The notes under the pieces were generated by a model. That model was not told where the DNA came from, ran no database searches, and saw only the letters and a program-made list of their open reading frames with translations. Positions 3,933-60,639 of a DNA stretch of 64,000 nt are shown here, piece by piece. The position numbers and the translations under genes were made by a program. The first letter of the stretch is position 1. Each line of letters opens with the position of its first letter. This DNA comes from a bacterium (GTDB taxonomy: Bacteria > Cyanobacteriota > Vampirovibrionia > Gastranaerophilales > JBAXKC01), in contig JBAXKC010000003.1 of NCBI GenBank assembly GCA_037137535.1, positions 73,960 through 137,959 on the forward strand. The letters are read 5' to 3'.

Positions 3933-4469
3933 ATGCAAATTAATACAACTCAAAATCACTATGCAAGTTCTTTAAATAAAAACAACCAACAAGTAGGTTT
4001 TGGTATGGCAAAAGTAGATTTAACAAAGGTTAAATATTTAATGCCTAAAACTGCTGAGGGACAAAAAGCTTTAGCGAGTGCAGTAGAGGTTTTTGAAAAA
4101 ACAACAGCAGGTATTAAAGGTACTGTAGAATTAAACGTAAAGTCTTTAGACAGATATGCAAAAGAAGGAGCTAAAAGATCAGATGGTTTAGTTCAATATG
4201 CAGATGAAGGTCGCAGAGTAAGCGTAGGATCATTTAAACAAAAAATTAGTGCAATATTTAAGCCGGAAGAAAATAAGGGCTTATTTAATCTAGGAAACAA
4301 AAAAGTACCTCAAATTCAAATAGAAGAATTAAATCGCTCTCCAATCGTTCAAGAAAGTGATTTTAATCTTGGTGCCTTTGCTCGTCAAGATAAAGACTGG
4401 CAGGAAAATGGGTTAACAGGAGCTGTAAAAAATCTTGCAAACGCTTTGAGCAAAGCGATTGGTAGATAA
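3933..4469 (+). CDS. Orphan protein with polar N-terminal leader (MQINTTQN...VGFG)
   Basis: Strong RBS AAGGAGG, 178-aa ORF, downstream hairpins; no recognisable domain. Confidence 0.8.
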   Translation: MQINTTQNHYASSLNKNNQQVGFGMAKVDLTKVKYLMPKTAEGQKALASAVEVFEKTTAGIKGTVELNVKSLDRYAKEGAKRSDGLVQYADEGRRVSVGSFKQKISAIFKPEENKGLFNLGNKKVPQIQIEELNRSPIVQESDFNLGAFARQDKDWQENGLTGAVKNLANALSKAIGR

Positions 4470-4546
4470 AACACTAAACGAATTCAAGAAAAAGTATCTA
4501 AATATTTATTAGAAATACTTTTATATTGATAATCTAATTTTTATAT

Positions 4547-4590
4547 AAAAAGAGGCTGTTCCAAAAGTAAAAAGTAACAGCCTCTTTTTT
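4547..4590. terminator. Bidirectional intrinsic terminator between convergent genes
   Basis: AAAAAGAGGCTGTT...AACAGCCTCTTTTTT. Confidence 0.8.
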
Positions 4591-4651
4591 GTAGGGTTCA
4601 TTATATTTAAAATAATTTTCTTATATAAATTATTTTGTCAAGTTTAAAGCA

Positions 4652-6385
4652 TTAATTTTCTATTTTTATTCTTTCTTGAGGAGATATTTCTATTGGTTCA
4701 GACTGATTTTTAATATATTCAGTTACTGCATCAGACATTGTCCAATCAAATATATTCATAACTCTATCTTCTTGATTAAGCATCTTATATCCAATAGATC
4801 CTGCAAATAAATAACCGTCATAAGCTACTGAGAATTTATGTGTAGGTTTATATTCGGAAAGATTTTTATCTGTGCCATCAGGTTGTTCTATAAAAATTTG
4901 AGAAACTTTATTATTACTATCGAGTTTGTATTTTAACCCCGAAGTTTGTAAATATTCAGGCTTTGTGGAAAGAGTAGAAGCTCCATGGTCTATTGCCTGT
5001 TTTATTTCATCTGCTGTTAATTCAACTTTATAAATTTTATTTTTAAACGGAAGTAATTCTTCAATTTCTCTTTTTGTTATAACTTGAACAGGTTCTGCGT
5101 TTTCCTCACTACCTATTTTGCCTCTGACTTTTGAATTATTAAAAAATGCTATATCAGCCCCTGCTTTGTGTTTAATTGCGTCTGCAACAAAACTTGCCAG
5201 AGGATTTTCAAGTTTTTGATTTTCGTTAATTATATTATTGAATACTTTAAGTTTGCCTATATCTTTATTTTTTCCTAAAAATTTGTCTTTAAGCTCTTGA
5301 ATAAGCGGGTCTTTTACTCTTTCTTTTATTTTATCCAGCTTATTTCCAACGCTCCTTATCGAGCCGTGTTTATCAAATTCAACGTCTAATAACCCTGCAT
5401 ATTCGCCATTTTTTCCTGCTTGAGTAACGACAACTATATTATTCTCAGAGTCTAAGAACATATTTTGTTCAGATTTTTCATACATGTTCGGCATTAAGGA
5501 TAATAAATTTTCAGGTGAAGCGTTTTTAAATACATCATGAGAATGTCCGCCTAATATGACATCAATTCCCTTTAAATGTCCCTGCTTTATTTCGTTTATA
5601 AGCCCAATATCTGCCTGTTTTCCCAGGTGAGAAACAAGAAATATTTTATTTATTCCTTGTTTTTTTAATTTATCAAGTTCATCGCTTATACTTTGAACAG
5701 TATCTTTGAAAATACCAAGTTTTAACCTTTCAAAAACAGCTTGAAACTTATCTGTTATGTTTTGATTTGAGAGAGGAGAAGGATGTTTAATTAATTCTGA
5801 TAATTCTTTTTCTTTTTTTCTTAATTCTTGTTCTGATTTTCCGAGAGAAATCCCCGAAAGATCCGCATTACCACCTACAGCTTCTTTTAAATCCATAGGA
5901 GCAACCCCAATAAATCCATATTTATGACCATTTTGAATAGAAATATCAGATTTTACAATTTTATCTTTATGTTTATAAACAGGACTGTCTTTTTGGACTT
6001 CAGTATTTGCTGATAAAAACTTAAAATTTGCCCTTTCTAGTAAATCAGTAAAACCTTTTTCACCGTTATCAAGCTCATGATTGCCTAGAGCTGAATAGTC
6101 TAAGCCTATTTTATTTAAGCATTCTATCCATAAACGATTTTTAGGGACATCTGTATCAATACAATTATCACCGGAGGAAATTAAAAAAGTATCAACAGGC
6201 TGGTAGTAATTTTTGGCATCCTGTTTGAATTTGTCGGAAGAAATTTTAATTCCATCCATCTTGGATAACTGCCCATGAACATCGTTTATATACCAAATTT
6301 TTACATTGGCGGTTTCTTTTTTTTCTTCTTGCGAACGAGTAAAGAAACCTTTAAATGGTAATTTATCAGAATATGAATTAATCAT
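4652..6385 (-). CDS. Bifunctional metallophosphatase/5'-nucleotidase (UshA-like), no Sec signal visible
   Basis: NDVHG, SSGD, LGNHELD, SHLG and GGHSH metal-binding motifs, QAG..G.Y, C-terminal 5'-NT domain (ENPLASFVADA, LLPFKN); ATG 6385 has GGGAG RBS. Confidence 0.9.
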   Translation of the reverse strand: MINSYSDKLPFKGFFTRSQEEKKETANVKIWYINDVHGQLSKMDGIKISSDKFKQDAKNYYQPVDTFLISSGDNCIDTDVPKNRLWIECLNKIGLDYSALGNHELDNGEKGFTDLLERANFKFLSANTEVQKDSPVYKHKDKIVKSDISIQNGHKYGFIGVAPMDLKEAVGGNADLSGISLGKSEQELRKKEKELSELIKHPSPLSNQNITDKFQAVFERLKLGIFKDTVQSISDELDKLKKQGINKIFLVSHLGKQADIGLINEIKQGHLKGIDVILGGHSHDVFKNASPENLLSLMPNMYEKSEQNMFLDSENNIVVVTQAGKNGEYAGLLDVEFDKHGSIRSVGNKLDKIKERVKDPLIQELKDKFLGKNKDIGKLKVFNNIINENQKLENPLASFVADAIKHKAGADIAFFNNSKVRGKIGSEENAEPVQVITKREIEELLPFKNKIYKVELTADEIKQAIDHGASTLSTKPEYLQTSGLKYKLDSNNKVSQIFIEQPDGTDKNLSEYKPTHKFSVAYDGYLFAGSIGYKMLNQEDRVMNIFDWTMSDAVTEYIKNQSEPIEISPQERIKIEN

Positions 6386-6473
6386 TATTGTATTCTCCCA
6401 CCTTAAAGTTAAAAACACATTAGATGAGCTGTCAAGATTTTTGTATAATTCTTATTGTAAGCGTTTTCAGTAA

Positions 6474-7646
6474 TTAATATTTCAATACAAAAGCTTTGTT
6501 CGTTGAATGCCTATAAGGAGGCACACGTCCCCCAGCAAATAAAACAGTATTATCTTTTAGTTGCGTTATTGTAGGAGCATAATGATTAGTATCATATTTA
6601 ACCTTATAAAAAGTATTAGTTTTAGGTGAAAATATTTCTATATCAGTTTGTGAGCCTCTTAAGTGATTATATCCCCCAAAAATCAAGAAGTTCCCATTAT
6701 TTAATAAGATTTCATCACTTCCCATTCTTGGTTTTGTCATATTAGAATCGAACATAATAAATTTATTTAAAGCAGCATTATAATATTCACAACTGTTGAG
6801 AATTTTGTTATTCGTGTCTATTTCTTGTCCACCACATATTAAAACCCTCTTATCATTAAGTTTAACTACTATCCCACCCCTTCTTTGATAATTCATATCA
6901 GGACCTGAAGAATATGTTTCTGTTTTAGGATTAAAAATAAATGTTTTTTTTCGTTCATAAGATATAACTAACACATTACCATTATCTAGATTAACCAGTG
7001 CCCCACTCCACCACCTTATGTCTTTAACAACAGTGTTAAAGGTATTATCTTTTGGATTATATATTTCTGTTGACGGGATATGCGAACCCACATCTTTTAA
7101 CATTATTTTTCCATCATCAAGAATAAGTGGTATAAATCCATTTATCATTTCATTTTGTGCTATTATCAGTTCTGGACCTTGGTAAAATTTATTAGTAATC
7201 GGATCATAAAATTCTGTAGTTCTAATACCAGCTTCGCCAGGCCCAGGTATATATCTTCCATTTGCATTAACAGTACCTGGTTTATCATCATCAGCCCATC
7301 CGCCAATAATAAAAACCCTTCCATCATTTAATAATACTGCAACGGGTTTTTCTCTAGCAAAAAGCATATCAGGTCCCATAGTAAATTTTTTGGTTTTAGG
7401 ATCGTATATTTCTGTACTTTTTAATGTTTGATGATTAAATGGCAAAGCACTGTTTCTACCCCCTATAATTAGTACACGTCCATCTTGTAGTAATGTAGCC
7501 GTATGTCTGCACCTGGCAATATTTAAGTTTCCTACTTTTTCAAATTTTAAATTATTGCTGTTTTCTGCGATTACACATCTACCTATACAAAACACTAAAA
7601 CTAAAATACTAAATATAACAATATAGTTTTTGGTGATTTTGTTCAT
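6474..7646 (-). CDS. Secreted Kelch-repeat/galactose-oxidase-like beta-propeller protein
   Basis: Repeated R..H.A.LL.DGRVLI.GG...E.YDP units; N-terminal hydrophobic signal; ATG 7646 follows GGAG. Confidence 0.85.
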   Translation of the reverse strand: MNKITKNYIVIFSILVLVFCIGRCVIAENSNNLKFEKVGNLNIARCRHTATLLQDGRVLIIGGRNSALPFNHQTLKSTEIYDPKTKKFTMGPDMLFAREKPVAVLLNDGRVFIIGGWADDDKPGTVNANGRYIPGPGEAGIRTTEFYDPITNKFYQGPELIIAQNEMINGFIPLILDDGKIMLKDVGSHIPSTEIYNPKDNTFNTVVKDIRWWSGALVNLDNGNVLVISYERKKTFIFNPKTETYSSGPDMNYQRRGGIVVKLNDKRVLICGGQEIDTNNKILNSCEYYNAALNKFIMFDSNMTKPRMGSDEILLNNGNFLIFGGYNHLRGSQTDIEIFSPKTNTFYKVKYDTNHYAPTITQLKDNTVLFAGGRVPPYRHSTNKAFVLKY

Positions 7647-7730
7647 AATACACTCCAATATCTAATTTACTAATAATTTTTATCAATACGCACTATTAAT
7701 ACCAAATAAATTATTTTAAATATTAATCAT

Positions 7731-7770
7731 AAAAAGCAAAAGCCGAATAATCATCGGCTTTTGCTTTTTT
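7731..7770 (-). terminator. Intrinsic terminator after recA-rny-ymdB-PHP operon
   Basis: AAAAAGCAAAAGCCGA...TCGGCTTTTGCTTTTTT. Confidence 0.85.
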
Positions 7771-7782
7771 ATATTGAATTTA

Positions 7783-8646
7783 TTATTTAGCAGCTATTTC
7801 TAAACGATTTTTTTCTTCTCTAAGTCCTGATATTACCCATTCAGGAATGAAATTTTTGCCTAAGAAAAGCTGTTTATTTGCTTTTGGCCCATGGCAGTCA
7901 GAACCGCCTGTTACTATAAGCCCGTATTCTTCGGTTAAAGTTGAATAATATTCAACCATAGCTGGAGAATGTTTTCTATGATAAACTTCAATTCCTCTAA
8001 GCCCAAAATTCATAAGATCTTTTACAAGGCTTTCCACATTTTCAAGATCGCATGGATGAGCAATTACAGGAATCCCGCCTGATTCATATATGGTTTCAAC
8101 AGCTTCATGAGGAGAAACGGTTATTCTGCGTACATATGTAGGTGATTTATCGTTAATATACTTAGAATACGCTTCTAATACGCTTTTTGTACCGCCCACA
8201 TTAACAATTGATTTGGCAATATGTGGTCTTCCGATGCTTCCGCCTTCCATTACAAGAGAAGTAACATCTTCAATTTTAATAGGCATTTTCGCTTCTTTAT
8301 TTAATTTTTCAATTATTTTATAGGTCTGCTCAAGTCTTGCATGCTGCTGATATTTTATCAGTTCGGCAAGTGGTTTTGCGTTTAGATTCATATGGTAACC
8401 CAATATATGAATTTCCTGCCCTTCCCAGATAGTGTTTACTTCAATACCCGGAATGATTTCCATTTGCTTGCCTGTTTGTGATTCCAATAAATCAGCATGC
8501 TTTTTTGCAAGCTCAAAAGAACCCACATTGTCATGATCTGTAATTGAAATAGCCGAAAGTCCTAATTCATAAGCCGCATCTACAATCTGTTCGGGCGTTA
8601 ACGTCCCGTCAGAATAGACGCTGTGAATATGCAAATCCAATTTCAA
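7783..8646 (-). CDS. PHP domain phosphoesterase (TrpH/YciV-like)
   Basis: DLHIHSVYSDG, ITDHD, GRPHIA, AHP, TGGSDCHG. Confidence 0.92.
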   Translation of the reverse strand: MKLDLHIHSVYSDGTLTPEQIVDAAYELGLSAISITDHDNVGSFELAKKHADLLESQTGKQMEIIPGIEVNTIWEGQEIHILGYHMNLNAKPLAELIKYQQHARLEQTYKIIEKLNKEAKMPIKIEDVTSLVMEGGSIGRPHIAKSIVNVGGTKSVLEAYSKYINDKSPTYVRRITVSPHEAVETIYESGGIPVIAHPCDLENVESLVKDLMNFGLRGIEVYHRKHSPAMVEYYSTLTEEYGLIVTGGSDCHGPKANKQLFLGKNFIPEWVISGLREEKNRLEIAAK

Positions 8647-8665
8647 CTTTCTATCCTTTCATAAT

Positions 8666-9472
8666 TTATCCTACCTCTTTTATGTCTATTAATTCATTAA
8701 TTCTTTTGATTTCTAAAGCATTGCCTGTTTTTGTGTCAATGCTTATTTTAACTCCGTTTATGCGGGTCCTTCCAATTTGAGCGACATCATATCTTTCAGG
8801 AAGACCTGTTATAAATCTTTTTAATGATCCTGCCATGTCCATTCCTATTATGCTGTCAACAACAGAACAGCTTCCTGCGTCTGTAATATAAGCGGTAGTG
8901 CCGCTTAAAATGGTTTCATCTGCTGTCTGAACATGTGTATGTGTTCCCACAAGAACGCTAACACCCAATGATTGAGCATAATAGCCTAGTCCTATTTTTT
9001 CAGCGGTGGCTTCAGCGTGAAAGTCTACAAAAATTATCGGAGTTTGTTCTTTTAATCTTTTAACTTCAGTCTCCAATGCTTCCCATGGGCTTTCGTAAGG
9101 TGGCATGAATACTCTTCCTAATAAGTTTATTACACCTATTTTTATACCGTCTTTTTCAAATATTTCAGAACCTTTACCCGGTACTGTTTTAGAAAAATTT
9201 AACGGACGTAAAAGAGCAGGAGCTCTGTCTATATAATTAAAGATATCTTTTTTGTCCCAAATATGATTTCCCGAGGTTAAAATATCAATTCCCGCCTCGG
9301 TTAATTCATTATAATTTTTCTCCGTAAGACCGAAGCCATGCGAAGCGTTTTCAACGTTAGCTACAATAAAGTCAGGCTGTATTTCAAGCGCTGACAAGTA
9401 TTGTTGAACTGCTATTCTGCCGGGTCTACCGACAATATCTCCTAAAAAGAGTATTTCTATGAGCGATTTCAT
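8666..9472 (-). CDS. ymdB: YmdB-family 2',3'-cyclic nucleotide metallophosphoesterase
   Basis: [47 protein letters not shown]; follows rny. Confidence 0.93.
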
Positions 9473-11016: not shown

Positions 11017-11170
11017 TGTCCCGTACCTCTTAACTGTCGATAACTCTTTATTTGTAGAACATTAAGCATTGTCCTGCTCTTTAATATTACCATATAAAGT
11101 AATTTAAAAAACATCAATTTGTGGTATATAAGCGAAAAAAAACAAAAATGGGAATAGCTTGTTTAGAAAG

Positions 11171-12241
11171 CTATTCCGGACTTTCTTCATGTTCTGTCGC
11201 AAAAGTTAAACTGCTCATACTTTCACGAACTTTAATTTCAACTTCGGCAAGTAGTTCAGGATTTTCCTCGAGGAATTGGGATGCTTTTTCTCTACCTTGA
11301 CCAATTTTATTATCATTGTAGCTAAACCATGAACCTGATTTTTTCACAATGTCCATATCAGCCGCAATATCAAGAATACAACCTGTTTTAGAAATGCCTT
11401 CTCCGTATACTATGTCGAATTCAGCAATTCTAAACGGTGGAGCTACTTTATTTTTAACTACTTTTACTTTTGTTCTGTTGCCATATTCAACACCGTCTCT
11501 TTTTAATGTTTCTTTTCTTCTTATGTCAAGTCTTACACTTGCATAATATTTAAGAGCATTACCACCTGTTGTTGTTTCGTTAGAACCGTACATAACACCG
11601 ATTTTAGATCTCAACTGGTTGATAAATATAACGGTAGTTCTTGTTTTATTTACAATCCCCGTAAGTTTTCTTAAAGCTTGACTCATTAGTCTGGCTTGAA
11701 GTCCCATGTGGCTATCGCCCATATCGCCTTCTATTTCGGCTTTTGGTACAAGAGCGGCAACTGAATCCACTACAATAACGTCAATTGCTCCGGAACGAAC
11801 AAGTTCTTCCGTTATTTCAAGAGCCTGTTCACCTGTGTCGGGTTGACTTATAAGAAGTTCGTCAACTTTAACACCAAGTTTTCTTGCATAATCAGGATCT
11901 AAGGCATGTTCAGCATCAATAAATGCAGCTAATCCGCCTGCTTTTTGCGCTTCAGCAACTATATGCTGTGCTAAAGTAGTTTTACCACTACTTTCAGGTC
12001 CATATAATTCTATAATTCTGCCTCTTGGCACTCCGCCTATTCCTAATGCCAAGTCAAGTGATAAAGCACCTGTTGGGATAACTTCAACCGAGGTTGCAGT
12101 TCTATCGCCAAGTCTCATTATTGATCCTTTACCAAAATCTTTTTCGATTTTAGCAAGGGCAAGTTCTAATGCTTTACTTCGCTCTGTATGTTCAGATTTA
12201 TCAGCTTTTTTATCAGCTTTGATTTTTTCTTCAACAGCCAT
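11171..12241 (-). CDS. recA: Recombinase A
   Basis: [34 protein letters not shown] 12241 after GAGGAG. Confidence 0.99.
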
Positions 12242-13628: not shown

Positions 13629-13632
13629 ATAA

Positions 13633-23450: not shown

Positions 23451-23510
23451 GCTGAAATAATTACTTCTTATTGAGAATGAAACTAGTTATAAAAGTTGTA
23501 TAATATTAAT

Positions 23511-23553
23511 AAAAGCAGGAATTCGACTCTAATTTGTAAAATTCCTGCTTTTT
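23511..23553 (+). terminator. Intrinsic terminator after serS
   Basis: AAAAGCAGGAATT...AATTCCTGCTTTTT. Confidence 0.75.
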
Positions 23554-23632
23554 CTTTGTTTGAAAAATTAAAAAGTTTATTTTTTTTGCAAATAATAATA
23601 TTATTAAAATGTAAGATAATAAAGGGCATAAA

Positions 23633-23833
23633 ATGGAGATTAATCCTAAAAGAGTCAGATATGTGAAGCCTTCTTTGCAGGGAACAGGCATTATTCCTGT
23701 CGGAGCAGAGGGTAATGTGCTATTATTTATTAAACATCCTGTAACCTCAAAACTTTTAGTTGATTTTCCTTCATTTGAAAAAGCAATAGTGCCGTTAAGC
23801 AGTGTAGAAATATTAGAGGAACACAATGGATAA
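23633..23833 (+). CDS. Small hypothetical protein overlapping the DGC gene start
   Basis: AAGGG RBS; 8-nt overlap with next gene. Confidence 0.6.
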   Translation: MEINPKRVRYVKPSLQGTGIIPVGAEGNVLLFIKHPVTSKLLVDFPSFEKAIVPLSSVEILEEHNG

Positions 23834-27933: not shown

Positions 27934-28659
27934 ATGTTGAACACAGTTAATCATGGTCTTATGGCAAGATCACAAAACAGAACAGCAGTAGCAACAAGAC
28001 AAACAGTACCGGCATTTAAAGGTGGAATAGAAAAAGTTGCAGTTCAAGCAGCAGATGGGTTTGTAACAAAGGCAGCTGCCGAACTTGGGGAGATTAAATT
28101 CGTAGATAGAGCAAGAAAAGCTCTAATGGCTGGAGAACCAGGCAGAGCATCGATTCTCTATAAAAAAGCAATACCACAAGTTGTTAAAAAATTTCAAAAT
28201 GAAGCTGAAAAAGTTGCTTTATTTTTTACAGAAGTTTCACAAGCATTATTTAGCGGAGCAGGAAAACTTCTTGATGAGTCAACTCAATTAGCAAAAGGTT
28301 CAACCGAGTTAGCTAATCGTGCAGTTGTTATTGCTGAAAATAAAGGTGATGATGTTGCTAAAGCTGGAACAAAAGTTATTAAAGAACTTACAGAGAAAAA
28401 TGCTGATCAAGTTTGCCATTCTTTAATTGGTACACCTGAAGCACAACAAGAATTTGCTCAAGGTATCATTAAAAGTGCAGCACCAAAAATTATTGAACAA
28501 AATGAGCTTTATCAGCTTAAAGTAGCAAGTGATGCAGCAAAAAATAAAGCTGAGCTTGAAGCTCTTCAAGTTCAAATGAAGTTAGAGCAAATGAAACAAA
28601 TGATGCAACCTGAAAAACCACATGGTGAATTTGGTTTTAACATAGCAGACGCAAAGTAA
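27934..28659 (+). CDS. Orphan helical protein with polar N-terminal leader (...PAFKG)
   Basis: 241-aa Ala/Lys/Gln-rich ORF, GAGG RBS, own terminator. Confidence 0.8.
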   Translation: MLNTVNHGLMARSQNRTAVATRQTVPAFKGGIEKVAVQAADGFVTKAAAELGEIKFVDRARKALMAGEPGRASILYKKAIPQVVKKFQNEAEKVALFFTEVSQALFSGAGKLLDESTQLAKGSTELANRAVVIAENKGDDVAKAGTKVIKELTEKNADQVCHSLIGTPEAQQEFAQGIIKSAAPKIIEQNELYQLKVASDAAKNKAELEALQVQMKLEQMKQMMQPEKPHGEFGFNIADAK

Positions 28660-33685: not shown

Positions 33686-34060
33686 ATGCAAATAGGTTTT
33701 AATAGTAGCCAGATAGAGCAAGCAGGGACTGTTGCAAAAAGAGTAATAAAAGACAATCCTGTTATAAAACGTGGAGAAGCGGTTGTAAAACAACAGCTTG
33801 TAGCTCATAGCGGACAAATTGAATCAAGTTTGCCAAAAGTTTGTAAGCAAATACAAACTTTTGTTCAAGATTCTTTTAAATCTGTGAAAAAGTTTTTTGG
33901 AGATGTCTTTGAAGGAATAAAAAATCTTTTTACAGAAAGAGGAACGATTACAATAAATGGTAAAGTTATACATCCATCTTCAACCTCAGTAACAATAATA
34001 GAGAATGGTACCCCAATTCAAGTTGGAAAACACAATGTACAAGAAATAGTTATTAAGTAA
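33686..34060 (+). CDS. Orphan protein (MQIGFN... leader)
   Basis: ATG 33686 after GGAG; own terminator at 34100-34145. Confidence 0.7.
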   Translation: MQIGFNSSQIEQAGTVAKRVIKDNPVIKRGEAVVKQQLVAHSGQIESSLPKVCKQIQTFVQDSFKSVKKFFGDVFEGIKNLFTERGTITINGKVIHPSSTSVTIIENGTPIQVGKHNVQEIVIK

Positions 34061-34160: not shown

Positions 34161-34405
34161 ATTATAGTGTTTGATTAAATTTATCTTTAAAAGATATATG
34201 TTTTTTGAGTATAAATCTTAACATATTTATATGGTGCTATTAGCATTTTAATACCATATTCTGTTTTTATAAATATAGGGTAGAATTAATCGTTAAGTGT
34301 AAAAGAGGAGAATTTAGATGTCGATTTCAAAATTAGGAACTATGAACAACTTATTTGCAACAACTTCAATTGATACAAGCGTAAAACCACAGGATCTCAA
34401 AAAGA
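34161..34405 (+). repeat. Copy 1 of a ~245-bp direct repeat (upstream region, RBS and first ~29 codons)
   Basis: Aligns by eye to 34849-35090 (GCATTTTAATACCATATTCTGTTTTTATAAATATAGG...AAAAGAGGAGAATTTAGATGTCGATTTCAAAATTAGGA). Confidence 0.92.
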
Positions 34406-34758
34406 ATTCAAATAGTGTATGGACAAATTTACCAAATGAAAAGGCTATTAAGGTTGCTGATATATCTATTAATAATGCTGGCCCAGGAGCACCACCGCTA
34501 CATCAATCAGTTTCTGCAGGTGATTTTACATGGGCATATGCTGCAACTGGAGATGGTCCTGGCGTAACCTATATGGATACACCAGGTAGGGCCGTAAAAC
34601 ATATCAGACTTACTCGAGAGCAGGATAGAAGAGCGATACAGGCTATTGAACAAGTAAGAACAAGATGGGATGATACTCCATACAATTTATTCAACCATAA
34701 TTGTAGAGGCTTTGCTGAAGAAGCATTTAATGCTGCGAGGTCGGCGGTTGGGAAATAA
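34318..34758 (+). CDS. Permuted papain-like (PPPDE/LRAT/DUF4105-like) protein, paralog 1
   Basis: His in PLHQSV upstream of YNLFNHNCRGF (Y-x-L-x-x-x-NC-x-x-F). Confidence 0.75.
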   Translation: MSISKLGTMNNLFATTSIDTSVKPQDLKKNSNSVWTNLPNEKAIKVADISINNAGPGAPPLHQSVSAGDFTWAYAATGDGPGVTYMDTPGRAVKHIRLTREQDRRAIQAIEQVRTRWDDTPYNLFNHNCRGFAEEAFNAARSAVGK

Positions 34759-34848: not shown

Positions 34849-35090
34849 ATTGTAGTATTTGATTTAATTTGCATTCAAAAGATATATATTTTTTGAATAC
34901 AAATCTTAATATGTTTGTGCAATATTGGCATTTTAATACCATATTCTGTTTTTATAAATATAGGATAGAATTAATCGTTAAGTATAAAAGAGGAGAATTT
35001 AGATGTCGATTTCAAAATTAGGATCTATGGACAACTTATTTGCAACAACTTCAAGTAATACAAGCGTAAAACCACAAGAATCACAAAAGA
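34849..35090 (+). repeat. Copy 2 of the ~245-bp direct repeat
   Basis: Aligns to 34161-34405. Confidence 0.92.
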
Positions 35091-35473
35091 GTGGATCAAT
35101 TTTTAATCAAAAACCATCTCAAGAAATAGCAGATATTTCATTTATGAGAAAAGGACCTAGTACAGGCTATGAACATCAATATGTATATTTTAATGAACTA
35201 CAGCAGGGATTTGGTTTTGTTCCAAGTAAAGAATTAAATATGATAGGACAAGCACCGGGTCATATTCAGGGCGAGAATCGCGATAGAGATGATATTGAAA
35301 TGAGAAGAATTCCTGCAAATAAAGCGGAAGAACAAAAAGTTTTAAATTATATGAGACAACAGGGTGCAATAGAAGATTATGATGGCACAGATTATTATTT
35401 AACAGGTCGTAATTGTATGACATTTATTAATGAAGTACATAAAGATGTAGGTAGAGTATTAAATAGACATTAA
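35003..35473 (+). CDS. Permuted papain-like (PPPDE/LRAT/DUF4105-like) protein, paralog 2
   Basis: His in YEHQYV, GFGF strand, YYLTGRNCMTF. Confidence 0.75.
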   Translation: MSISKLGSMDNLFATTSSNTSVKPQESQKSGSIFNQKPSQEIADISFMRKGPSTGYEHQYVYFNELQQGFGFVPSKELNMIGQAPGHIQGENRDRDDIEMRRIPANKAEEQKVLNYMRQQGAIEDYDGTDYYLTGRNCMTFINEVHKDVGRVLNRH

Positions 35474-35498
35474 TCTTTAAAAAATAAATATAGTTATG

Positions 35499-35526
35499 AA
35501 ATAAGCCTTACTCAGGCTTATTTTTT
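35499..35526 (+). terminator. Intrinsic terminator
   Basis: AAATAAGCCT-TACTC-AGGCTTATTTTTT. Confidence 0.75.
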
Positions 35527-48432: not shown

Positions 48433-48435
48433 AAA

Positions 48436-52427: not shown

Positions 52428-52430
52428 CCC

Positions 52431-52841: not shown

Positions 52842-52879
52842 ATAAAAAATCGGACTTTTAATAAGTCCGATTTTTTATT
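52841..52879. terminator. Bidirectional terminator
   Basis: AATAAAAAATCGGACTT...AAGTCCGATTTTTTATT. Confidence 0.85.
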
Positions 52880-53288: not shown

Positions 53289-53291
53289 TTA

Positions 53292-55283
53292 TTATTTAAC
53301 TTTTGTGTTTAACACTTTAATTCTAAGTTTTATATCTTCAGCTTCAGGGCTGTCAGGAGCAAAAGTTATAAATTTTTTATAATTGTTTAATGCTTCTTTA
53401 TAGGCTTTTTCTTTTTCATATTCTGCACCGATTGCATAATATGCGTATGCAAAATCGGATTTTGTTCGGATTATTTCATTAAAGCAGGCTTTAGCTTCAG
53501 GACCTTTATTAAGATCGGCATAAGCTAAACCAAGGTTAAATCTTATGTCAATATTATCAGGATCAAGCTTCAGAGCTTGTTCATATATTTTTTTAGCTTC
53601 AAGAGAATTTTTATTATCTCTATAAGCATTACCTAGTTTAACAAGTGCTTCAAGATTTATTTTATCGGTTAATAAAACTTTTGAATATTGAGCTATCGCA
53701 TTATCCAGTTCATTTTTATCAGCATAAATATCACCAATTTTTAAATTTGCCTCAATTGAATTAGGATCAAGTTCCAGCACTCTTTCAAATGCGCCTGATG
53801 CTTCAGCTGTTTTTTCAACTTTTAAATAAGCATTTCCCATTGCAAGGAAAAGGTCTTTATTTGATGAATCTTTTGCTGCCGCTGCTTCATATTTTTCAAT
53901 GGCTTCATCATAACGACCAAGTTTTTGGTAGCTGTTGGCTGCACCTGTTAAAGCATAAAAATCCGATGGATTTTTTTTCAACGCAAGATTATAACTGTTT
54001 AAAGCTGATTCAAAATTACTATTTTTAAAATAATTATTTCCTTTTGCTGTTAAAACTTTTGCATATTCATTTTTTACGTTTTCATTTGTTTTTAAATTAA
54101 GTGATTTCTGAAAAAGTTCTTCTGCTTTATCGAAATTATCAAGTGCTTGATAAGCTAGCCCTGCATCATAATAAAGATCGGGATCTTTGCTATTTGTTTT
54201 TATTAATTGATTATAAAGGTCTATGGCTTTTTTGTAGTTTTTAGAGATATGATAGCTTTTTGCTAATTCAAGCTTAATATCCTGATCATCAGGATTTAAA
54301 GTTATTGCTTTTTCAAGCTCTGTAATAGCTTTATCGGTATCACCTTTTTTTTCATACAGCATTGCAATATTATATCTTGCTTCATATCTGTTAGGATAAA
54401 ACTTTAGATATTCCAAATATTGATTAACAGCTTCATCTGTTTGGTTTAACTCGCTTAATAATTTAGCATAATCAAACCTTACTTCATTAAATCCAGGTTT
54501 TATTCCTAAACAAGCTTTATATTCGGCTAGTGCTTTAGTTTTTTGATCGGTATTAAGATAGGCAATTGCCAGATTAGCGTGAGTTTCAGCATTGTAAGGT
54601 TTTTTGGCTATTGCTGCTTCAAGAATTTCAATAGCACGTTTATAGTTTTTTGTTACAACAAGAGCTTTTCCCATAATGTCATATTCGTTAAAATGATCGG
54701 GATCAAGTTTTAAAATTTCTTCATAGCTGCTTATTGCATCAGTATAATTTTCTTGTGCTAAGTATAAAGAAGCTATACTTTTTTTTGCATCTATATGATC
54801 AGGTTCATATGATAAAAATTTCTTATAGTATTCTAAAGCAGATTTATAATCTTTTTTGAGGGTAAAAGTATTGGCAATATTTAAATAGTTATAATAGTAT
54901 TCAGGAGATATTTTTAATGCTTGCATATAAGCATCAAGAGCTCCGTTGGTGTCATCATTTTGTTGTAATATATTACCTATACAAAAATAAATATAGGCAT
55001 CATTGGGTGTTATCATTAGAGCTTGATTATACTCGTTTAAAGATTCTTTCCAATTGCCTTCATCATTTAAAAATCCTGCCAGTTTAATGTGAATCATTGC
55101 TTCGTTAGGTGCAATTTTAAGTGCTTTTTGAAGTTCTTCTTTTGCTCCTTGTATATCTCTGGCTCTTTGTAATGTAAGAGCATTACTGTAATATCTATAA
55201 GCATCAGGTCTCATTGAATATGCAGGTAATGAAACCGCAATTGCCAGAATAAGACTTAAAGCTGTAACTCTTTTGTTAGCCAT
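53292..55283 (-). CDS. Exported multi-TPR protein
   Basis: Signal peptide (AYS-M), many 34-aa TPR repeats (A...Y..AL...P). Confidence 0.9.
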   Translation of the reverse strand: MANKRVTALSLILAIAVSLPAYSMRPDAYRYYSNALTLQRARDIQGAKEELQKALKIAPNEAMIHIKLAGFLNDEGNWKESLNEYNQALMITPNDAYIYFCIGNILQQNDDTNGALDAYMQALKISPEYYYNYLNIANTFTLKKDYKSALEYYKKFLSYEPDHIDAKKSIASLYLAQENYTDAISSYEEILKLDPDHFNEYDIMGKALVVTKNYKRAIEILEAAIAKKPYNAETHANLAIAYLNTDQKTKALAEYKACLGIKPGFNEVRFDYAKLLSELNQTDEAVNQYLEYLKFYPNRYEARYNIAMLYEKKGDTDKAITELEKAITLNPDDQDIKLELAKSYHISKNYKKAIDLYNQLIKTNSKDPDLYYDAGLAYQALDNFDKAEELFQKSLNLKTNENVKNEYAKVLTAKGNNYFKNSNFESALNSYNLALKKNPSDFYALTGAANSYQKLGRYDEAIEKYEAAAAKDSSNKDLFLAMGNAYLKVEKTAEASGAFERVLELDPNSIEANLKIGDIYADKNELDNAIAQYSKVLLTDKINLEALVKLGNAYRDNKNSLEAKKIYEQALKLDPDNIDIRFNLGLAYADLNKGPEAKACFNEIIRTKSDFAYAYYAIGAEYEKEKAYKEALNNYKKFITFAPDSPEAEDIKLRIKVLNTKVK

Positions 55284-55391
55284 ACCATATTTCCCCGATT
55301 CATCACATTTATTAAATTATCTCTCGAAGTAGGACAGTTGGTCAACAGTTTGTTTAATTCATTATCATATTTGTGTATGGCCTAGTTGCTT

Positions 55392-55886
55392 TTACATTAA
55401 TCTGTCAACAACTTTTTCAAATAGATTATTTATTGTTTTAAATATATTTTTTTTTGGAATTTCTTCAATGATTTCTTTACGGTTTTCCATGATATTTTTA
55501 ATCAGCTTTGGTAGTTTAATTTCAACAATGTCGCAAAAGTCTAAAATGGATCTTTTATTTTCATGATTTTTGCATTTGACGTATTCTTCTGTGAGATCAG
55601 ACATAACGGAGTGAATTTCTTTTTTCGATAGAGGTTCTACTGCTCTTTCAAAAATATCAAGTGTCTTCTCATTGGGTTTAAGAGCTTGATTATTTCCATA
55701 TAAAATATTGTCTTTTTTTGTTTTATCATAAGTTCCCATAAGAATAAGGGCATCAACCGCATGAAGAAGATTTTTTCTTTCTTCACCACCTGCTGGTAAG
55801 AAGCTTGCTGCCTTTGCATATTCTTGTGTTAGCTCGTTACCTATTTTGCCTTTAAAACTTATATTGTTATTGGAATGAATTAACAA
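55392..55886 (-). CDS. Orphan protein with leader MLIHSNNNISFKG
   Basis: TTG start 7 nt after GGAG-C; 164 aa. Confidence 0.75.
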   Translation of the reverse strand: MLIHSNNNISFKGKIGNELTQEYAKAASFLPAGGEERKNLLHAVDALILMGTYDKTKKDNILYGNNQALKPNEKTLDIFERAVEPLSKKEIHSVMSDLTEEYVKCKNHENKRSILDFCDIVEIKLPKLIKNIMENRKEIIEEIPKKNIFKTINNLFEKVVDRLM

Positions 55887-56033
55887 AATAATAGCTCCAT
55901 TGATTTATCTACTTTTATAAAAACAGTATTATTTCATAAATTGCTTTAATTTGAATCTCTAATGACAATTTTGATTTTTTTCAGGCTTTATACTTAATAA
56001 GTAGAGTATATTTTATAACTAAGGAAATAAGTT

Positions 56034-56348
56034 ATGCAAATAGTTAATTTTAAAGGAAATCTCCCGTCCTATACGGAAAAGACAAATCCCGGAGAACTAA
56101 TCGGATTAAAAGTTAAAATTGATCCTAAAGATAAACAGAGTGATTATTATTTAAAGTATGGTGATAATGAAAAACGAATTCAAGAAAGTGATGAGTTAGT
56201 CGTTGTATCTGACTTTATGGCAAATTTGAGTTGTGGTCGTGAAATGCCCAATGCGGTGAGGAAAATTAGTGTTTATAATCCTAGAACTGATGAAGAAACC
56301 TATAATATTTATGAAAATAAGTTCTCAGCTTTTGACGTAGTTGGTTAA
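56034..56348 (+). CDS. Orphan protein with leader MQIVNFKG
   Basis: AAGGA RBS, 104 aa, terminator follows. Confidence 0.7.
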   Translation: MQIVNFKGNLPSYTEKTNPGELIGLKVKIDPKDKQSDYYLKYGDNEKRIQESDELVVVSDFMANLSCGREMPNAVRKISVYNPRTDEETYNIYENKFSAFDVVG

Positions 56349-56353
56349 AAATA

Positions 56354-56390
56354 AACAGGCGATGAATTTTAATAATCATCGCCTGTTATT
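56354..56390. terminator. Bidirectional hairpin terminator
   Basis: AACAGGCGATGA...TCATCGCCTGTT. Confidence 0.8.
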
Positions 56391-56402
56391 ATATTATCAG
56401 TT

Positions 56403-56957
56403 TTATTTAATCAAGGCTTGAACTTGTTTGAAGTTAGGATTTTTTGCACATTGTAAAAGCTCAAAAATTGCCATTTCGCTGCAACTGGTAATTGCTCCAT
56501 ATGATTTCATTCGTTCAATTCCTACTTTATATTCGTATTCTTTTCTTGAACTTATTGCATCTTGAATTAAATGCACTTCATAGCCGTGTTGGATTAAATC
56601 ATATACTGTCTGATGAACGCAGACGTGTGATTCCATTCCGCAAACAATAATTTGTTTTTTATTGAAGGATTTTATTAATTCGCTAAAGCCTTCTTCATTA
56701 CAACAGCCAAAGTTTACTTTTTCAAAATATATAGTATTATCGGGCAATGTTTTTTTAAGTTCAGAAACGGTTCCTCCAAGCCCTCTAGGGTATTGTTCGG
56801 ACACTAACATTGGTATATCAAGTATCTTACAGGTTTCAGCAAGAGCTAGGGCATTTTTTAATACAGCTTCTTTGTTAAATTGAGCGGGTAGCAGTTTTTC
56901 CTGAATGTCTATTATTAATAACATTGTATTTTCAGAATTTAATATAGTAGGTTGCAT
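56403..56957 (-). CDS. Isochorismatase-family hydrolase (YcaC/ISOC-like)
   Basis: IIDIQEKL, EQYPRGLGGT, K..F, GMESHVCVHQT. Confidence 0.92.
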   Translation of the reverse strand: MQPTILNSENTMLLIIDIQEKLLPAQFNKEAVLKNALALAETCKILDIPMLVSEQYPRGLGGTVSELKKTLPDNTIYFEKVNFGCCNEEGFSELIKSFNKKQIIVCGMESHVCVHQTVYDLIQHGYEVHLIQDAISSRKEYEYKVGIERMKSYGAITSCSEMAIFELLQCAKNPNFKQVQALIK

Positions 56958-56959
56958 TT

Positions 56960-57748
56960 TTATTCTCCTTTTTTCAGAAATTCTTGTAAGAATTTAACGC
57001 TAGAGATTGCCTGTTGTTTGTCAAAAACCTCTATTACAATATTAGGATTTATTTTTAAAGATTGTATTCCTTTAAAAAATTCTTCAAAATTTATACTTCC
57101 GTCAAAAAAGCCATTGTGCTGATCATAAGCCTTATGATTATTATGAGCGTGAATGTGATGAATATTATTTTTATACTCATTTAGCCATTCATAAGGGCTT
57201 ATTTGAGAAATTATGTTGGCATGACCTGTGTCAAGACAGGCTTTTAAATAGGGAGAATTAACTCCTTCAACTATTTTATTTATAACTTCGGGAGAAGGAT
57301 CATAGACATTTTCAATAACTGCTGTTATTTTAGCGCTTTCAAACTGAACGATAAATTCTTTCCAAAATTCTATATTTTTAGTGATTAATTTTTTAATATA
57401 ATGCTCTTTACTTCTTCCGAAAGGTACAAAGTTGGAATGAAAAACAATTGTTGTAGCTCCGAGAGCTTTTGCGGTATCAAATGACATCTGGTATCTTTGT
57501 ATGCTTATTTTTTTTATTTCAGGATCTTTAGAAACAGTGCTTAAATCTCCGCAACATCCATGAATTGAAATTTTTCCGTTAAAGTTTTTAAGTTTTTCTG
57601 AATAAATTGAGATAGTTTTATTTAAGGTTTTTTCATCAAATCCTGATTTTAACAAATCGCTTATTTCTATATTTATATGATTTTCTTCTGCTATTTTTAT
57701 TACTTTTTCAAAGTCTGAAGAAATTTTAGAAGTTATATAAATGTCCAT
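56960..57748 (-). CDS. Sugar phosphate isomerase/epimerase (AP endonuclease 2-like TIM barrel)
   Basis: SIHG, VFH, IENV, CLDTGH, HIHAHNN, DQH, EV. Confidence 0.85.
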   Translation of the reverse strand: MDIYITSKISSDFEKVIKIAEENHINIEISDLLKSGFDEKTLNKTISIYSEKLKNFNGKISIHGCCGDLSTVSKDPEIKKISIQRYQMSFDTAKALGATTIVFHSNFVPFGRSKEHYIKKLITKNIEFWKEFIVQFESAKITAVIENVYDPSPEVINKIVEGVNSPYLKACLDTGHANIISQISPYEWLNEYKNNIHHIHAHNNHKAYDQHNGFFDGSINFEEFFKGIQSLKINPNIVIEVFDKQQAISSVKFLQEFLKKGE

Positions 57749-57906
57749 TTTTTATGACCTTTTTATTTTTAATAAAATCGTAACATATTTATAGGGCTAA
57801 AAATATAAAGATTGTATAAATAATGAGAGATTTAACCGCCTTTCTTTGTGGTATCATGCTCCTGTTCACAGTTACTTTTAAAAAAGTTTTGAAAGGGTTA
57901 CTAATT

Positions 57907-59631
57907 ATGAAAATGTCAGCTCTTTTTGTTCAGACATTAAGAGAAAATCCTGCCGATGCTGAAGTCGTAAGTCATCAGTTTCTGGTAAGAGCAGGATATA
58001 TAAGAAGATTAACAGGCGGAGTCTATACTTATATGCCTCTTATGTGGAGAGTCTTAAAGAAAATCGAAAATATTATAAGAGAAGAAATGGACAAAAAAGA
58101 TGCTCAAGAGCTTTTGATGCCTATTCTTCAACCTGCTGAAGTGTGGCAGGAATCGGGGAGATGGGATGTTTACGGAAAAGAGCTTATGCGTCTTAGAGAC
58201 AGACATGACAGAGAAGTTACCCTCGGGCCAACCCATGAAGAAGTTATAACCTCGCTTGTAAGAGATGAAGTAAGATCATACAGGCAGTTACCGCTTAATT
58301 TATATCAGATTCAGAATAAATTCAGAGATGAAATTCGTCCACGTTTCGGACTCTTGAGAGGAAGAGAGTTCATTATGAAAGATGCTTACAGTTTTGACGT
58401 TGATGAGGCGGGTCTTGATGTAAGCTATGACAAAATGACCGAGGCCTATATCAATATATTTAACAGATGCGGACTTGAAACAAGAATGGTTCAAAGTGAT
58501 TCAGGTGCTATAGGCGGAAGTTTAAGCCATGAATTTATGGTTCTTACAAGAACTTCAAGCGGTGAGAATGATGTTCTTTTCTGTACTACTTGTAACTATG
58601 CAGCAAACTCAAATCATGCTGCTTCAAAGTTGCCTGTTGCTGATATAGACGGTAAATTTCCCGAAGTAAAAGAAGTTGATACCCCAAATACAAAATCAAT
58701 TGAAGAACTTGAATCATTTTTAAACATTCCAGCTTCTGTAATTTGTAAAACACTTGTTTATATTGCAGATGAAAGACCTATTCTTGCTATTATAAGAGGT
58801 GATTTAACAGTTGAAGAAACAAAGTTGAAAAATGCTATCGGTGCTAATGATATTAGAATTGCAACAGCTGAAGAAATTGCGGAATTAATGAATTTAGCAG
58901 GATTTAATGCTGATAAAGGTTTTATTGGTCCTAAAGGCTTAAAAGCTCAAGTTGTAGCAGATGAATCAGTAAAAGAACTTAAAAACTTTGTTGTTGGAGT
59001 AAACAAGGTTGATAAACACTTAGTTGGCGTTAATTGGGGTGCTGATTACGAATTGCCTAAAACCGTTGCGGACATTCGTCTTGCAAAAGCAGGAGAAGGC
59101 TGCCCTCAATGTGATGGAGCTCTTGATATTACAAAAGGTATAGAAGTAGGAAATATTTTCAAACTTGGAACAAAATATTCTAAAAAAATGAAAGCTACTT
59201 TTACCGATGAAAAAGGCAAAGAACGTCCATTTATAATGGGTTGTTACGGTATTGGAGTGTCAAGAACTGCGGCTGCCGCTGTTGAAAGATACCATGATGA
59301 GTCAGGTATTAAGTGGCCTGTTCAGATTGCTCCGTTTCATGCGATTGTTGTTCCTGTAAATCTTAAAGATGAACTTCAAATGAGCGTTGCAAATGATATT
59401 TATAAATCACTTTTTGATGATGGTTATGAAGTTGTAATTGACGACAGAGACGAAAGAGCAGGCGTTAAATTTAAAGATGCCGACTTAATTGGTTTCCCGT
59501 TCAGAATAACAGTCGGAAAAACCATTGCAGAAGGTTTAGTTGAACTAAAAATCAGAGAAACAGGCGAAGTTTTAACAATTCTGCCTGAAGAAGCTAAGGC
59601 CAAGATTAAGCAATTAATTTCACAAGGTTAA
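57907..59631 (+). CDS. proS: Proline--tRNA ligase (with INS editing domain)
   Basis: LGPTHEE, KFRDEIRPRFGLLRGREFIMKDAYSF, GIEVGNIFKLG, MGCYGIG; start ATG 57907. Confidence 0.99.
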   Translation: MKMSALFVQTLRENPADAEVVSHQFLVRAGYIRRLTGGVYTYMPLMWRVLKKIENIIREEMDKKDAQELLMPILQPAEVWQESGRWDVYGKELMRLRDRHDREVTLGPTHEEVITSLVRDEVRSYRQLPLNLYQIQNKFRDEIRPRFGLLRGREFIMKDAYSFDVDEAGLDVSYDKMTEAYINIFNRCGLETRMVQSDSGAIGGSLSHEFMVLTRTSSGENDVLFCTTCNYAANSNHAASKLPVADIDGKFPEVKEVDTPNTKSIEELESFLNIPASVICKTLVYIADERPILAIIRGDLTVEETKLKNAIGANDIRIATAEEIAELMNLAGFNADKGFIGPKGLKAQVVADESVKELKNFVVGVNKVDKHLVGVNWGADYELPKTVADIRLAKAGEGCPQCDGALDITKGIEVGNIFKLGTKYSKKMKATFTDEKGKERPFIMGCYGIGVSRTAAAAVERYHDESGIKWPVQIAPFHAIVVPVNLKDELQMSVANDIYKSLFDDGYEVVIDDRDERAGVKFKDADLIGFPFRITVGKTIAEGLVELKIRETGEVLTILPEEAKAKIKQLISQG

Positions 59632-59633
59632 GC

Positions 59634-59658
59634 CAAAAGGGACTCGAAAGAGTCCCTT
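59634..59658 (+). terminator. Terminator hairpin, copy 1 of 25-bp direct repeat
   Basis: CAAAAGGGACTC-GAAA-GAGTCCCTT. Confidence 0.85.
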
Positions 59659-59712
59659 TATGTTTTATATATAGCAACGTTATAAAATTAATAAAAAAGT
59701 TGGATAAATAAA

Positions 59713-60639
59713 ATGTTATTGAATCTAGTCAATTCAAAATTAAGCTTTACTGCAAAAATAAAAATTGATTGTAGATACACTTCTCCTGAAGTAAGAAATA
59801 AAACTACAGCAATACTTGGTGCATCAAGAAGTTCTGAGCAATTAGATCGTTTTGAACGAATTGCTTATAATGATGCAAGTTCAACAGTAAAACGAAATGA
59901 ATATATCATTACAGGCTGTGGATCTAATGGAATTATGGGTGCAAGCTATAGAGGTGCCGCTAATGTTGATAAGGAGCATAACCTTGCAGTCTTAAAAGCA
60001 CCGCTATGGGGGGATGAAAATACTTCTGAATGTGAGGTTCTTGGCACAAGAAAAACAGAGACGTCCAGAATTAATGACTTTGACGAAGTGGCTGAAAATA
60101 AACATATTTATCCTGGTGGTGCTGCAACTGTAGCTGAGGCTGCAAGATTTGTACTCTTAAAGTTGAAAAATCCTGAAAAGCCAAGCAATATAACACTCAT
60201 CGGAAAACAAGAATTTAAAGGGATTCAGGAGCAATATCAATCAATGGAAAATAAAGGTTACTTGCCTGAAGGAACTGCCGCTAAATTATTTAATATAGTA
60301 GATTCAAGTGAAGAATTAGATTCAATCTCAGAATTTTCAACAATTTCAAAAACAAATAGTGAGTTTTTTGAAGAGGAGAAAATTAATCTTGAAAAACAAG
60401 GTAATAAATTTTTCTTTAAAGAAGGTGGACCAAAGACTCTTGAGCGAATAACAAGGATTGTTGCTATTAAAAAATATGCCAAAGGAGATAATATTCCTGA
60501 AATTTACCTTATTGGCAAGGAATTCTATAAAGGACTAGATAAACAATATAAACAGTTATTTGAAATGGGCTTATTAGATACAGCACCTGAAAAACTGTAT
60601 CATTTAGTTGATGAAAATGAAGTAAATATACAAGATTAA
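59713..60639 (+). CDS. Divergent LOG/SLOG-family nucleosidase-like protein with duplicated C-terminal half
   Basis: AILGASR, IITGCGSNGIMGA..RGA, PGGAATVAE (cf. PGGxGTxxE). Confidence 0.75.
   Translation: MLLNLVNSKLSFTAKIKIDCRYTSPEVRNKTTAILGASRSSEQLDRFERIAYNDASSTVKRNEYIITGCGSNGIMGASYRGAANVDKEHNLAVLKAPLWGDENTSECEVLGTRKTETSRINDFDEVAENKHIYPGGAATVAEAARFVLLKLKNPEKPSNITLIGKQEFKGIQEQYQSMENKGYLPEGTAAKLFNIVDSSEELDSISEFSTISKTNSEFFEEEKINLEKQGNKFFFKEGGPKTLERITRIVAIKKYAKGDNIPEIYLIGKEFYKGLDKQYKQLFEMGLLDTAPEKLYHLVDENEVNIQD

Follow-up and report, generated by a model that had tools for sequence, protein, structure and literature searches.

A candidate Sec-independent N-terminal leader shared by unrelated proteins of Gastranaerophilales

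The Gastranaerophilales, uncultured relatives of cyanobacteria, are widespread in the gut, and most of them retain an incomplete set of flagellar genes, the purpose of which stands as an open question. A stretch of 64,000 nucleotides from this order (contig JBAXKC010000003.1, positions 73,960–137,959 of the forward strand; hereafter the window) raises a question of its own: why should several proteins with unrelated bodies begin with a similar short, polar leader? The initial annotation of the window had read this leader as a secretion or processing tag and had named nine genes that carry it (Table 1). Based on sequence comparison, we put at roughly 0.5 the probability that the leader is a lineage-specific presequence of the Melainabacteria / Gastranaerophilales, which would direct proteins with no other resemblance out of the cytoplasm and would bypass the Sec signal-peptide route.

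The strongest evidence for an export role was the exchange of leader and Sec signal peptide in two unrelated protein families, each with a member in the window, in which the leader stands where homologues bear a Sec signal peptide. The first is the family of the 5'-nucleotidase 6385(-), for which we collected 100 dereplicated homologues from Melainabacteria. A stretch of at least 7 hydrophobic residues in 10 was present in only 2/100 of these, and the extreme N-terminus was conserved (I/V/L at position 2 in 81/100, I/V at position 5 in 53/100) while the distance to the catalytic N-D-x-H motif varied from 16 to 79 residues. In contrast, 22 of 26 5'-nucleotidases from loci of Bacillota, Alphaproteobacteria, Chloroflexota and Cyanobacteria had a Sec-type hydrophobic N-terminus (at least 7 in 10) directly before the catalytic motif; of the four exceptions, two were probably mis-called starts, one was truncated and one came from locus L043, a Melainabacteria-like contig. 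Homologues of the window enzyme whose source was named belonged to Melainabacteria, Gastranaerophilales, 'Cyanobacteria bacterium' or an unclassified 'bacterium', and the gene often occurred in two tandem copies (e.g. L029, L043).

The second family, that of the LOG-like protein 59713, comprised 50 proteins found by exhaustive HMMER search. A script assigned 21 of these to the leader class, 4 to a Sec-like class, 10 to other N-termini and 1 to no extension, leaving 14 unclassified, among which we recognised by eye a leader in five (the query, P0128, P0139, P0147 and P0165) and a Sec-type N-terminus in P0123 and P0133. Most full-length members thus started with the leader, and six (P0123, P0127, P0133, P0149, P0155 and P0163) had a Sec-type or lipoprotein-type hydrophobic peptide instead. 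In the family alignment (A4), the signal peptides ended in the columns occupied by the F-x-[G/A/S] motif, and the conserved core began a few residues further on. All leader-type members with a named source were Melainabacteria / Gastranaerophilales, including a groundwater genome. Overall, the comparisons show that the leader recurs on unrelated proteins and is conserved in families whose catalytic domains are 40% or less identical to the window protein. The initial annotation's proposal of a secretion tag was supported to the extent that the leader replaces the Sec signal peptide in two families.

Additional features of these families and their loci were also observed. In the 59713 protein, the C-terminal P-G-G...L-I-G-K...Q-Y segment is partially repeated internally (59803–60636, plus strand; BLASTP E = 5e-5 between halves), and about six LOG-like homologues have the same form of about 320 residues. 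A word-based homologue search with 59713 returned only the protein itself. Next to the 5'-nucleotidase gene, L017, L020, L021 and L023–L026 contain a conserved gene trio (e.g. L023:7299–9803; L024:5446–7912), with a protein of about 334 residues on the minus strand followed by one of about 460 residues; the latter opens with a long leader, the final P-[S/V]-F-[T/R]-A of which falls at about residues 40–56, and neither matched a Pfam or NCBIfam family. Several loci with foreign titles, L043 (Anaerovoracaceae), L001 and L011 (Muribaculaceae) and L005 (Clostridium sp.), grouped with Gastranaerophilales by gene content, synteny (ftsE/ftsX, split transketolase, pilin-like genes), G+C content of 0.31–0.34 and the 5'-nucleotidase tree, and their titles probably reflect mis-binning.

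The anatomy of the leader was derived from 56 examples from the window, the loci and the two homologue sets, chosen by eye and hence subject to selection bias. Their overall form was M-x-[I/L/V]-polar...[I/V/L/P]-[S/N]-F-[K/G/T/R]-[A/G/S], in which two elements could be distinguished. The extreme N-terminus, M-x-[I/L/V]-[N/S]-x-[I/V], was nearly without acidic residues, with I/L/V at position 3 in 36/56 and frequent I/V at positions 5–6. A spacer of variable length separated it from the second element, [I/V/L/P]-[S/N]-F-[K/G/T/R]-[A/G/S], which was frequently continued by N/K at +3; the Phe lay at positions 6–47 (median 15), and a small residue (A/G/S) occupied +2 in 41/56. A polar linker, again variable in length, then led into the folded protein. 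Leaders were rich in Asn (15.6%), Ile (11.0%) and Ser (10.5%) and poor in Asp plus Glu (1.5%). The leader resembles Sec type I signal peptides in that it precedes, in two families, the same conserved domains and in the small residue at the end of its motif, but it differs in that no hydrophobic core was found (0/100 and 0/29 in the sets scored), as the initial annotation had proposed, and in that position -3, with the small residue as -1, is a Phe, where signal peptidase I calls for a small residue. All nine window N-termini were as first described, and each open reading frame begins no more than 11 codons from the earliest start that follows a stop; therefore, no upstream signal peptide is hidden. 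No earlier description of such a leader was found in the literature searched, the coverage of which did not extend to subscription journals and preprint supplements.

Known classes of signal were considered and set aside. A Sec type I signal peptide has a positive n-region and then a hydrophobic h-region of about 7–15 residues, whereas none of the 100 Melainabacteria 5'-nucleotidases had, in its first 35 positions, 8 or more hydrophobic residues out of any 10. For a lipoprotein signal peptide, which has a lipobox with a final Cys, Cys made up 0.5% of leader residues and followed the motif in no leader. A Tat signal peptide was disfavoured by the lack of a hydrophobic region and of a twin-arginine consensus in the logo, in the absence of a dedicated Tat predictor run. 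The type IV prepilin pattern, in which a short basic leader with a final Gly precedes F-T-L-x-E and a hydrophobic helix, was found in 10 separate pilin-like locus genes, none of them leader-bearing. As a double-glycine leader (Gly at -2, Gly/Ala/Ser at -1), with the small residue taken as -1, only 10/56 had G at -2, and most had K/T/R there.

To what extent does this likeness exceed chance? Motif tests drew on the 64-kb window and on independent Melainabacteria / Gastranaerophilales loci. Locus genes were called with a simple caller of our own, dropping those with a start score <2, those shorter than 80 residues and open reading frames at contig edges; the 5'-nucleotidase anchor genes were left out of locus counts by a regular expression, which a few slipped through (e.g. 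L025:8134). A two-part matrix covering residues 2–5 (2–6 for the reverse matrix) together with the best-scoring 10-mer that surrounds a Phe was compared with pseudo-N-termini at internal Met residues of the same proteins, with their 99th percentile as threshold. Trained on six window leaders, this matrix placed 13/414 N-termini from 30 independent Melainabacteria loci above threshold (4.1 expected; binomial p = 3.4e-4), with no excess in 49 loci of other phyla (8/604 vs 6.0 expected, p = 0.26), the low-GC Bacillota loci among them included. Conversely, a matrix from 50 non-window leaders passed 5/57 window genes (55886(-), 59713, 3933, 27934 and 56034), all of them candidates named beforehand; the initial annotation had seen no motif on housekeeping proteins, and none of the window's passed. 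Regular expressions gave a less even picture: a strict one following the earlier wording matched 3/53 window genes and 0/270 internal-Met pseudo-N-termini, and a relaxed one matched 9/414 independent N-termini vs 9/1998 in the comparison set (Fisher p = 0.0013; shuffles, mean 3.1, maximum 10). Taken together, the tests indicate that the likeness among leaders is beyond chance and, as far as sampled, restricted to Melainabacteria.

The cargo following the leader was diverse. When 23 leader-stripped proteins were compared all against all (phmmer, E ≤ 10), the only related pair was 34318/35003, which upholds the view of a modular N-terminal tag common to proteins with unrelated bodies. Domains recognised on leader bearers of the window and loci were 5'-nucleotidase, LOG, a weak PPPDE, AAA ATPase, methyltransferase and GNAT, and the bulk were orphans of 90–250 residues, some with transmembrane segments. 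Adjacent small orphan genes for proteins of 93–168 residues, with clear leaders and unrelated bodies, were found at L029:13109–14898 (four genes) and L030:16778–17533 (two genes), which are the strongest independent examples of the tag. An effector repertoire aimed at a host or prey cell, as first suggested, found no support in the cargo with domains, a 5'-nucleotidase and a LOG-type nucleosidase. Judged by their family names, these enzymes suggest ordinary nucleotide scavenging outside the cell or in the periplasm rather than host-directed effectors, because both families have Sec-exported relatives.

Several results weigh against the export reading or against the leader itself. The strict expression matched none of the 414 independent N-termini, and eight of the nine relaxed matches came from two loci. 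The F-x-[G/A] element was present in only 11/100 Melainabacteria 5'-nucleotidases. The leaders were picked by eye, so that their logo and invariant Phe are partly circular. Some bearers (the AAA ATPase, methyltransferase and GNAT proteins) also look cytoplasmic. The first of these results, together with the tripeptide F[KGT][GA], which was no more frequent in the first 40 residues (23/442 Melainabacteria-locus genes) than in the next 37 (22/442), would be expected if the leaders had no common function and arose from an AT-rich genome (G+C content 0.30–0.37 in the window) favouring N, I, K, S and F, from codon preferences after the start and from post-hoc picking. Real N-termini in general also scored slightly above internal-Met controls for the first element (mean -4.64 vs -5.25, p = 0.004). 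However, this bias is small beside the leaders' own mean of +4.5 (self-scored), cross-validated matrices succeeded in both directions against controls of the same composition, the low-GC Bacillota loci gave no excess, and in two families diverged homologues have kept the leader, which alternates with Sec signal peptides; we therefore regard a lack of common function as very improbable.

The cytoplasmic-looking bearers point to a different possibility, namely that the leader is a propeptide or docking tag of cytoplasmic proteins, removed by a dedicated protease or serving assembly, regulation or degradation. In Firmicutes, the Prp protease removes an N-terminal extension of ribosomal protein L27, and the short leader, which closes with F-x-[small] and has a hydrophobic residue two places earlier, resembles this L27 / phage-capsid Prp site; the AAA ATPase, methyltransferase, GNAT and LOG domains are, moreover, normally cytoplasmic. 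On the other hand, L27 of the related locus L013 had no extension (the Prp gene itself was not searched for), and such a tag leaves the exchange of leader and Sec signal peptide in two families unexplained. We favour an export presequence over a cytoplasmic tag because the leader stands in for a signal peptide in two unrelated families, and a cytoplasmic role appears quite doubtful.

If the leader is an export presequence, which machine would read it? As first noted, the export machine is not encoded in the window, and none of the window's genes is flagellar. It does encode ordinary Sec signal peptides and lipoproteins (e.g. 6474-, 30063+, 38005+, 52875- and 53292-), and the Sec route is therefore in normal use. 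The exchange with Sec signal peptides indicates export but no particular machine, and one may envisage a peptidase-containing ABC exporter with cleavage behind the small residue, a type IV filament system or a contractile injection particle that the proteins are loaded into. The small residue at +2 in 41/56 leaders is what would be expected at a cleavage site, and pilin-like genes adjoin the 5'-nucleotidase gene in L016, L022 and L043 and occur in 8/32 loci overall. However, a double-glycine leader needs Gly at -2, and only 10/56 leaders have G at +1; double-glycine leaders are also amphipathic or acidic, and those described here are neither. Type II and type IV filament systems act on substrates that Sec or Tat has already exported, and no contractile-injection or ABC-peptidase gene was found in the annotated loci, in which most of the 442 locus genes were left unscanned. 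An exporter of one of these kinds is, in our view, unlikely.

We know of no injectisome in this lineage. The leading candidate machine, less likely than export itself and still rather improbable when judged from gene neighbourhoods and motifs, would be the flagellar-type III export gate (FlhA/FlhB/FliPQR). More specifically, though we rate it as less probable than not by a wide distance, the leader may be a motif-defined signal of a flagellum-derived exporter, with the gate retained as a general secretion system in non-motile gut Melainabacteria; M-x-I...[S/N]-F-K-[G/A/S] would mark the substrates, and docking of the Phe on FlhB-C would take place at a far smaller distance than in flagellar subunits, with possible cleavage behind the small residue. 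The idea of a type III or flagellar link had been raised in the initial annotation, and it gained support in that flhA, flhB and fliF/G/H genes lay near the 5'-nucleotidase gene in 7/31 loci. In L005, fliE-fliF-x-fliH-flhA was directly upstream on the same strand; in L017, L021, L023 and L025, a FliA/WhiG-like sigma gene and flhB were adjacent and convergent to it; L019 had the same two genes 3 kb away, and L043 had fliFGH at 3 kb. In the 5'-nucleotidase tree, these loci were spread over at least two or three clades. The gene L005:5802–6815, between fliF and fliH at the expected fliG site, had no FliG domain match and only a weak match to MgtE_N, and may encode a very divergent FliG; flhA follows fliH directly, with no fliI/fliJ between.

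Published flagellar systems offer points of comparison. According to a 2026 preprint, flagellar sets are complete in about 25% of Gastranaerophilales genomes, and the others retain flhB, fliI and flgG, which were 'postulated' to serve secretion; in an earlier report, complete sets were present in 3/9 genomes and most kept a subset (Soo et al. 2014, PMC4040986). Early (rod/hook) flagellar subunits of Salmonella are described as having a hydrophobic N-terminal signal and a gate-recognition motif, the conserved Phe of which docks on FlhB-C (PMC8983047, PMC9307174), in a pocket with described residues (PMC9307174). The leader is like these signals, as they are described there, in its small aliphatics within the first 2–7 positions (the early-subunit feature of a small non-polar residue near the N-terminus was present, but was partly a selection criterion), in a conserved Phe further in and in a polar segment without a Sec-type core. 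Furthermore, Melainabacteria FlhB, as seen in L025, retained the NPTH autocleavage site and had S/P/A/L for A286/P287/A341/L344 of the 383-residue PDB chain 36hu_K1, keeping three of four pocket residues; this chain was taken as Salmonella FlhB because its numbering fits PMC9307174. A broader resemblance is to Campylobacter jejuni Cia and related proteins, which lack a Sec signal peptide and whose N-terminus directs export via the flagellar apparatus (PMC2764114, PMC5223770), but no common motif was noticed in the cited accounts, whereas the motif recurs here, and the machine here is putative. Compared with Pseudomonas syringae type III effectors (PMC3338616), 46/56 leaders had no acidic residue in the first 12 (53/264 other soluble N-termini) and 43/56 had an aliphatic residue or Pro at position 3 or 4 (104/264), the latter partly circular because this rule overlaps with leader selection. 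In contrast, Ser exceeded 10% of the first 50 residues in only 22/56 (34/264), all three rules held together in 11/56, and Asn was the dominant polar residue. These targeting patterns are reported as not strictly required (PMC3338616).

Other observations count against a type III route. Phe at position 30 or beyond was found in 4/56 leaders (median 15), and Salmonella early subunits are described as needing at least 19 residues between their two signals, with Phe no nearer than 30 residues to the N-terminus in native subunits (PMC8983047). The leader consensus [S/N]-F-K-[A/G/S] is not described for flagellar subunits in these accounts, and the leader's cargo consists of enzymes and orphans, not axial proteins. 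FliE of L005, the sole bona fide early substrate at hand, reached only the 93rd percentile and thus did not stand out as a leader. A sigma-28-type promoter was found upstream of 0/59 leader genes vs 8/457 others, pilin-like genes were as frequent in the loci as flagellar ones, and the 64-kb window lacks flagellar genes. The gate-recognition pattern of early subunits, F-x-x-x-hydrophobic (PMC8983047), was also considered as the second element and rejected, with a hydrophobic residue at F+4 in only 10/56 leaders. Flagellar linkage was likewise set aside as a decisive argument, given the equal frequency of pilin-like genes.

Within the window, the leader-bearing genes lie among a gene content dominated by housekeeping functions (valS, RNase Y, recA, serS, cysK/E, purB, thrB, infB, nusA, pheST, proS and pnp), with a PilT ATPase, a chemoreceptor and an OprB porin. 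Window proteins had no match in PADLOC and matched PHROGs only at E ≥ 0.003; searches of the window with Rfam and for tRNAs found nothing. The initial annotation's claim that nearly every non-housekeeping soluble open reading frame starts with the leader was too broad, as 7783, 8666, 13633, 20302, 56403, 56960 and the TPR gene at 1988–3505 (-) lack it; the shared leader is thus real beyond chance, in matrices run both ways, but narrower than claimed. The N-termini of the three weak candidates, 33686 and 34318/35003, read as described but scored below threshold (2.0–3.8). A recognisable Shine-Dalgarno sequence preceded eight of the nine genes, with 59713 as the weak exception, and the statement that most of the genes have a terminator of their own went too far, in that a simple scan gave terminator-like sites only after 35003 (35498–35524) and on both sides of the monocistronic 59713.

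Table 1. Leader-bearing genes and candidate genes of the window, and the repeat shared by the tandem pair
Feature	Position	Strand	Size	Leader	Matrix score	Remarks
Orphan	55392..55886	-	164 aa	residues 1-13 (55848-55886), ending I-S-F-K-G	20.8	top score with matrix from non-window leaders; TTG start, GGAG 8 nt upstream; no family in Pfam, NCBIfam, PHROG or PADLOC
LOG-like protein, PF03641	59713..60639	+	308 aa	residues 1-14 (59713-59754), ending L-S-F-T-A	14.0	
Orphan	3933..4469	+	178 aa	about residues 1-24 (3933-4004), ending V-G-F-G	11.4	GAAGGAGG upstream of start
Orphan	27934..28659	+	241 aa	long, residues 1-30 (27934-28023), ending P-A-F-K-G	9.5	no family or PDB relative; no usable ESM Atlas match
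Orphan	56034..56348	+	104 aa	shortest, residues 1-8 (56034-56057), ending V-N-F-K-G	8.6	diverges from neighbour 55886(-)
5'-nucleotidase / metallophosphatase, Pfam PF02872 and PF00149	4652..6385	-	577 aa	residues 1-13 (6347-6385), ending L-P-F-K-G	2.4	below threshold, included via its family; polar linker between leader and catalytic domain
Orphan	33686..34060	+	124 aa	weak candidate, F at position 5	3.5	below threshold
Weak PPPDE-like protein	34318..34758	+	146 aa	weak candidate	2.0	PF05903 E = 6.9e-5, below cut-off
Weak PPPDE-like protein	35003..35473	+	156 aa	weak candidate	3.8	tandem paralogue of 34318
Direct repeat	34238..34405	+	168 nt			second copy 34923-35090, 92%

For the orphan 3933, the closest ESM Atlas clusters were Melainabacteria hypotheticals, and most structure matches began at residue 22–24. 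The nearest named clusters were type III effector families at 0.76–0.77, a range that according to the tool often reflects chance; all ESM Atlas leads were below 0.9, and a PDB sequence search gave nothing significant.

The direct repeat spans 80 nt of promoter and 5' untranslated region and the first ~29 codons of both PPPDE-like genes. Positions -80 to -1 of 34318 and 35003 were identical at 77/80 sites and codons 1–25 at 70/75, compared with 47/117 at later positions, so that identity of 93–96% in promoter and leader collapsed after about codon 26 to 40% in the body. Either gene conversion or stronger constraint may have held promoter and leader constant on diverging bodies. Terminal reassortment has been described for type III effectors, and the constant promoter plus leader on a diverged body recalls it. 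Despite this cassette-like arrangement, both proteins are weak matches to the main leader. A word-based homologue search with 35003 returned only itself and one relative of 146 residues.

Other features of the window were also recorded. Between the convergent genes 59713+ and 60674-, a hairpin at 60654–60675 with a perfect 9-bp stem reads as a terminator in either direction, and the hairpin at 59636–59659 resembles it, with a GGGACTC core common to both. The TPR gene 1988–3505 (-) has no ATG in its first ~70 codons, and none of the possible TTG starts has a clear ribosome-binding site. A TTG-initiated open reading frame for 106 residues at 23506–23826 (-), between serS and a GGDEF gene, also lacks a ribosome-binding site and is probably no gene.

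If the leader replaces Sec signal peptides, the exported proteins of a whole lineage would become readable from genome sequence, and annotation pipelines that now call leader-bearing proteins cytoplasmic would be corrected. Type III signals are famous for the absence of a consensus, and a motif-bearing type III signal would therefore be mechanistically useful. If the tag tracks the flagellar gate, the hypothesis of secretion by a flagellar remnant would become directly testable; and were the leader to prove the signal of a flagellum-derived exporter, the 'remnant' flagellar genes of these gut bacteria would gain a function and their secretome would be predictable from sequence.

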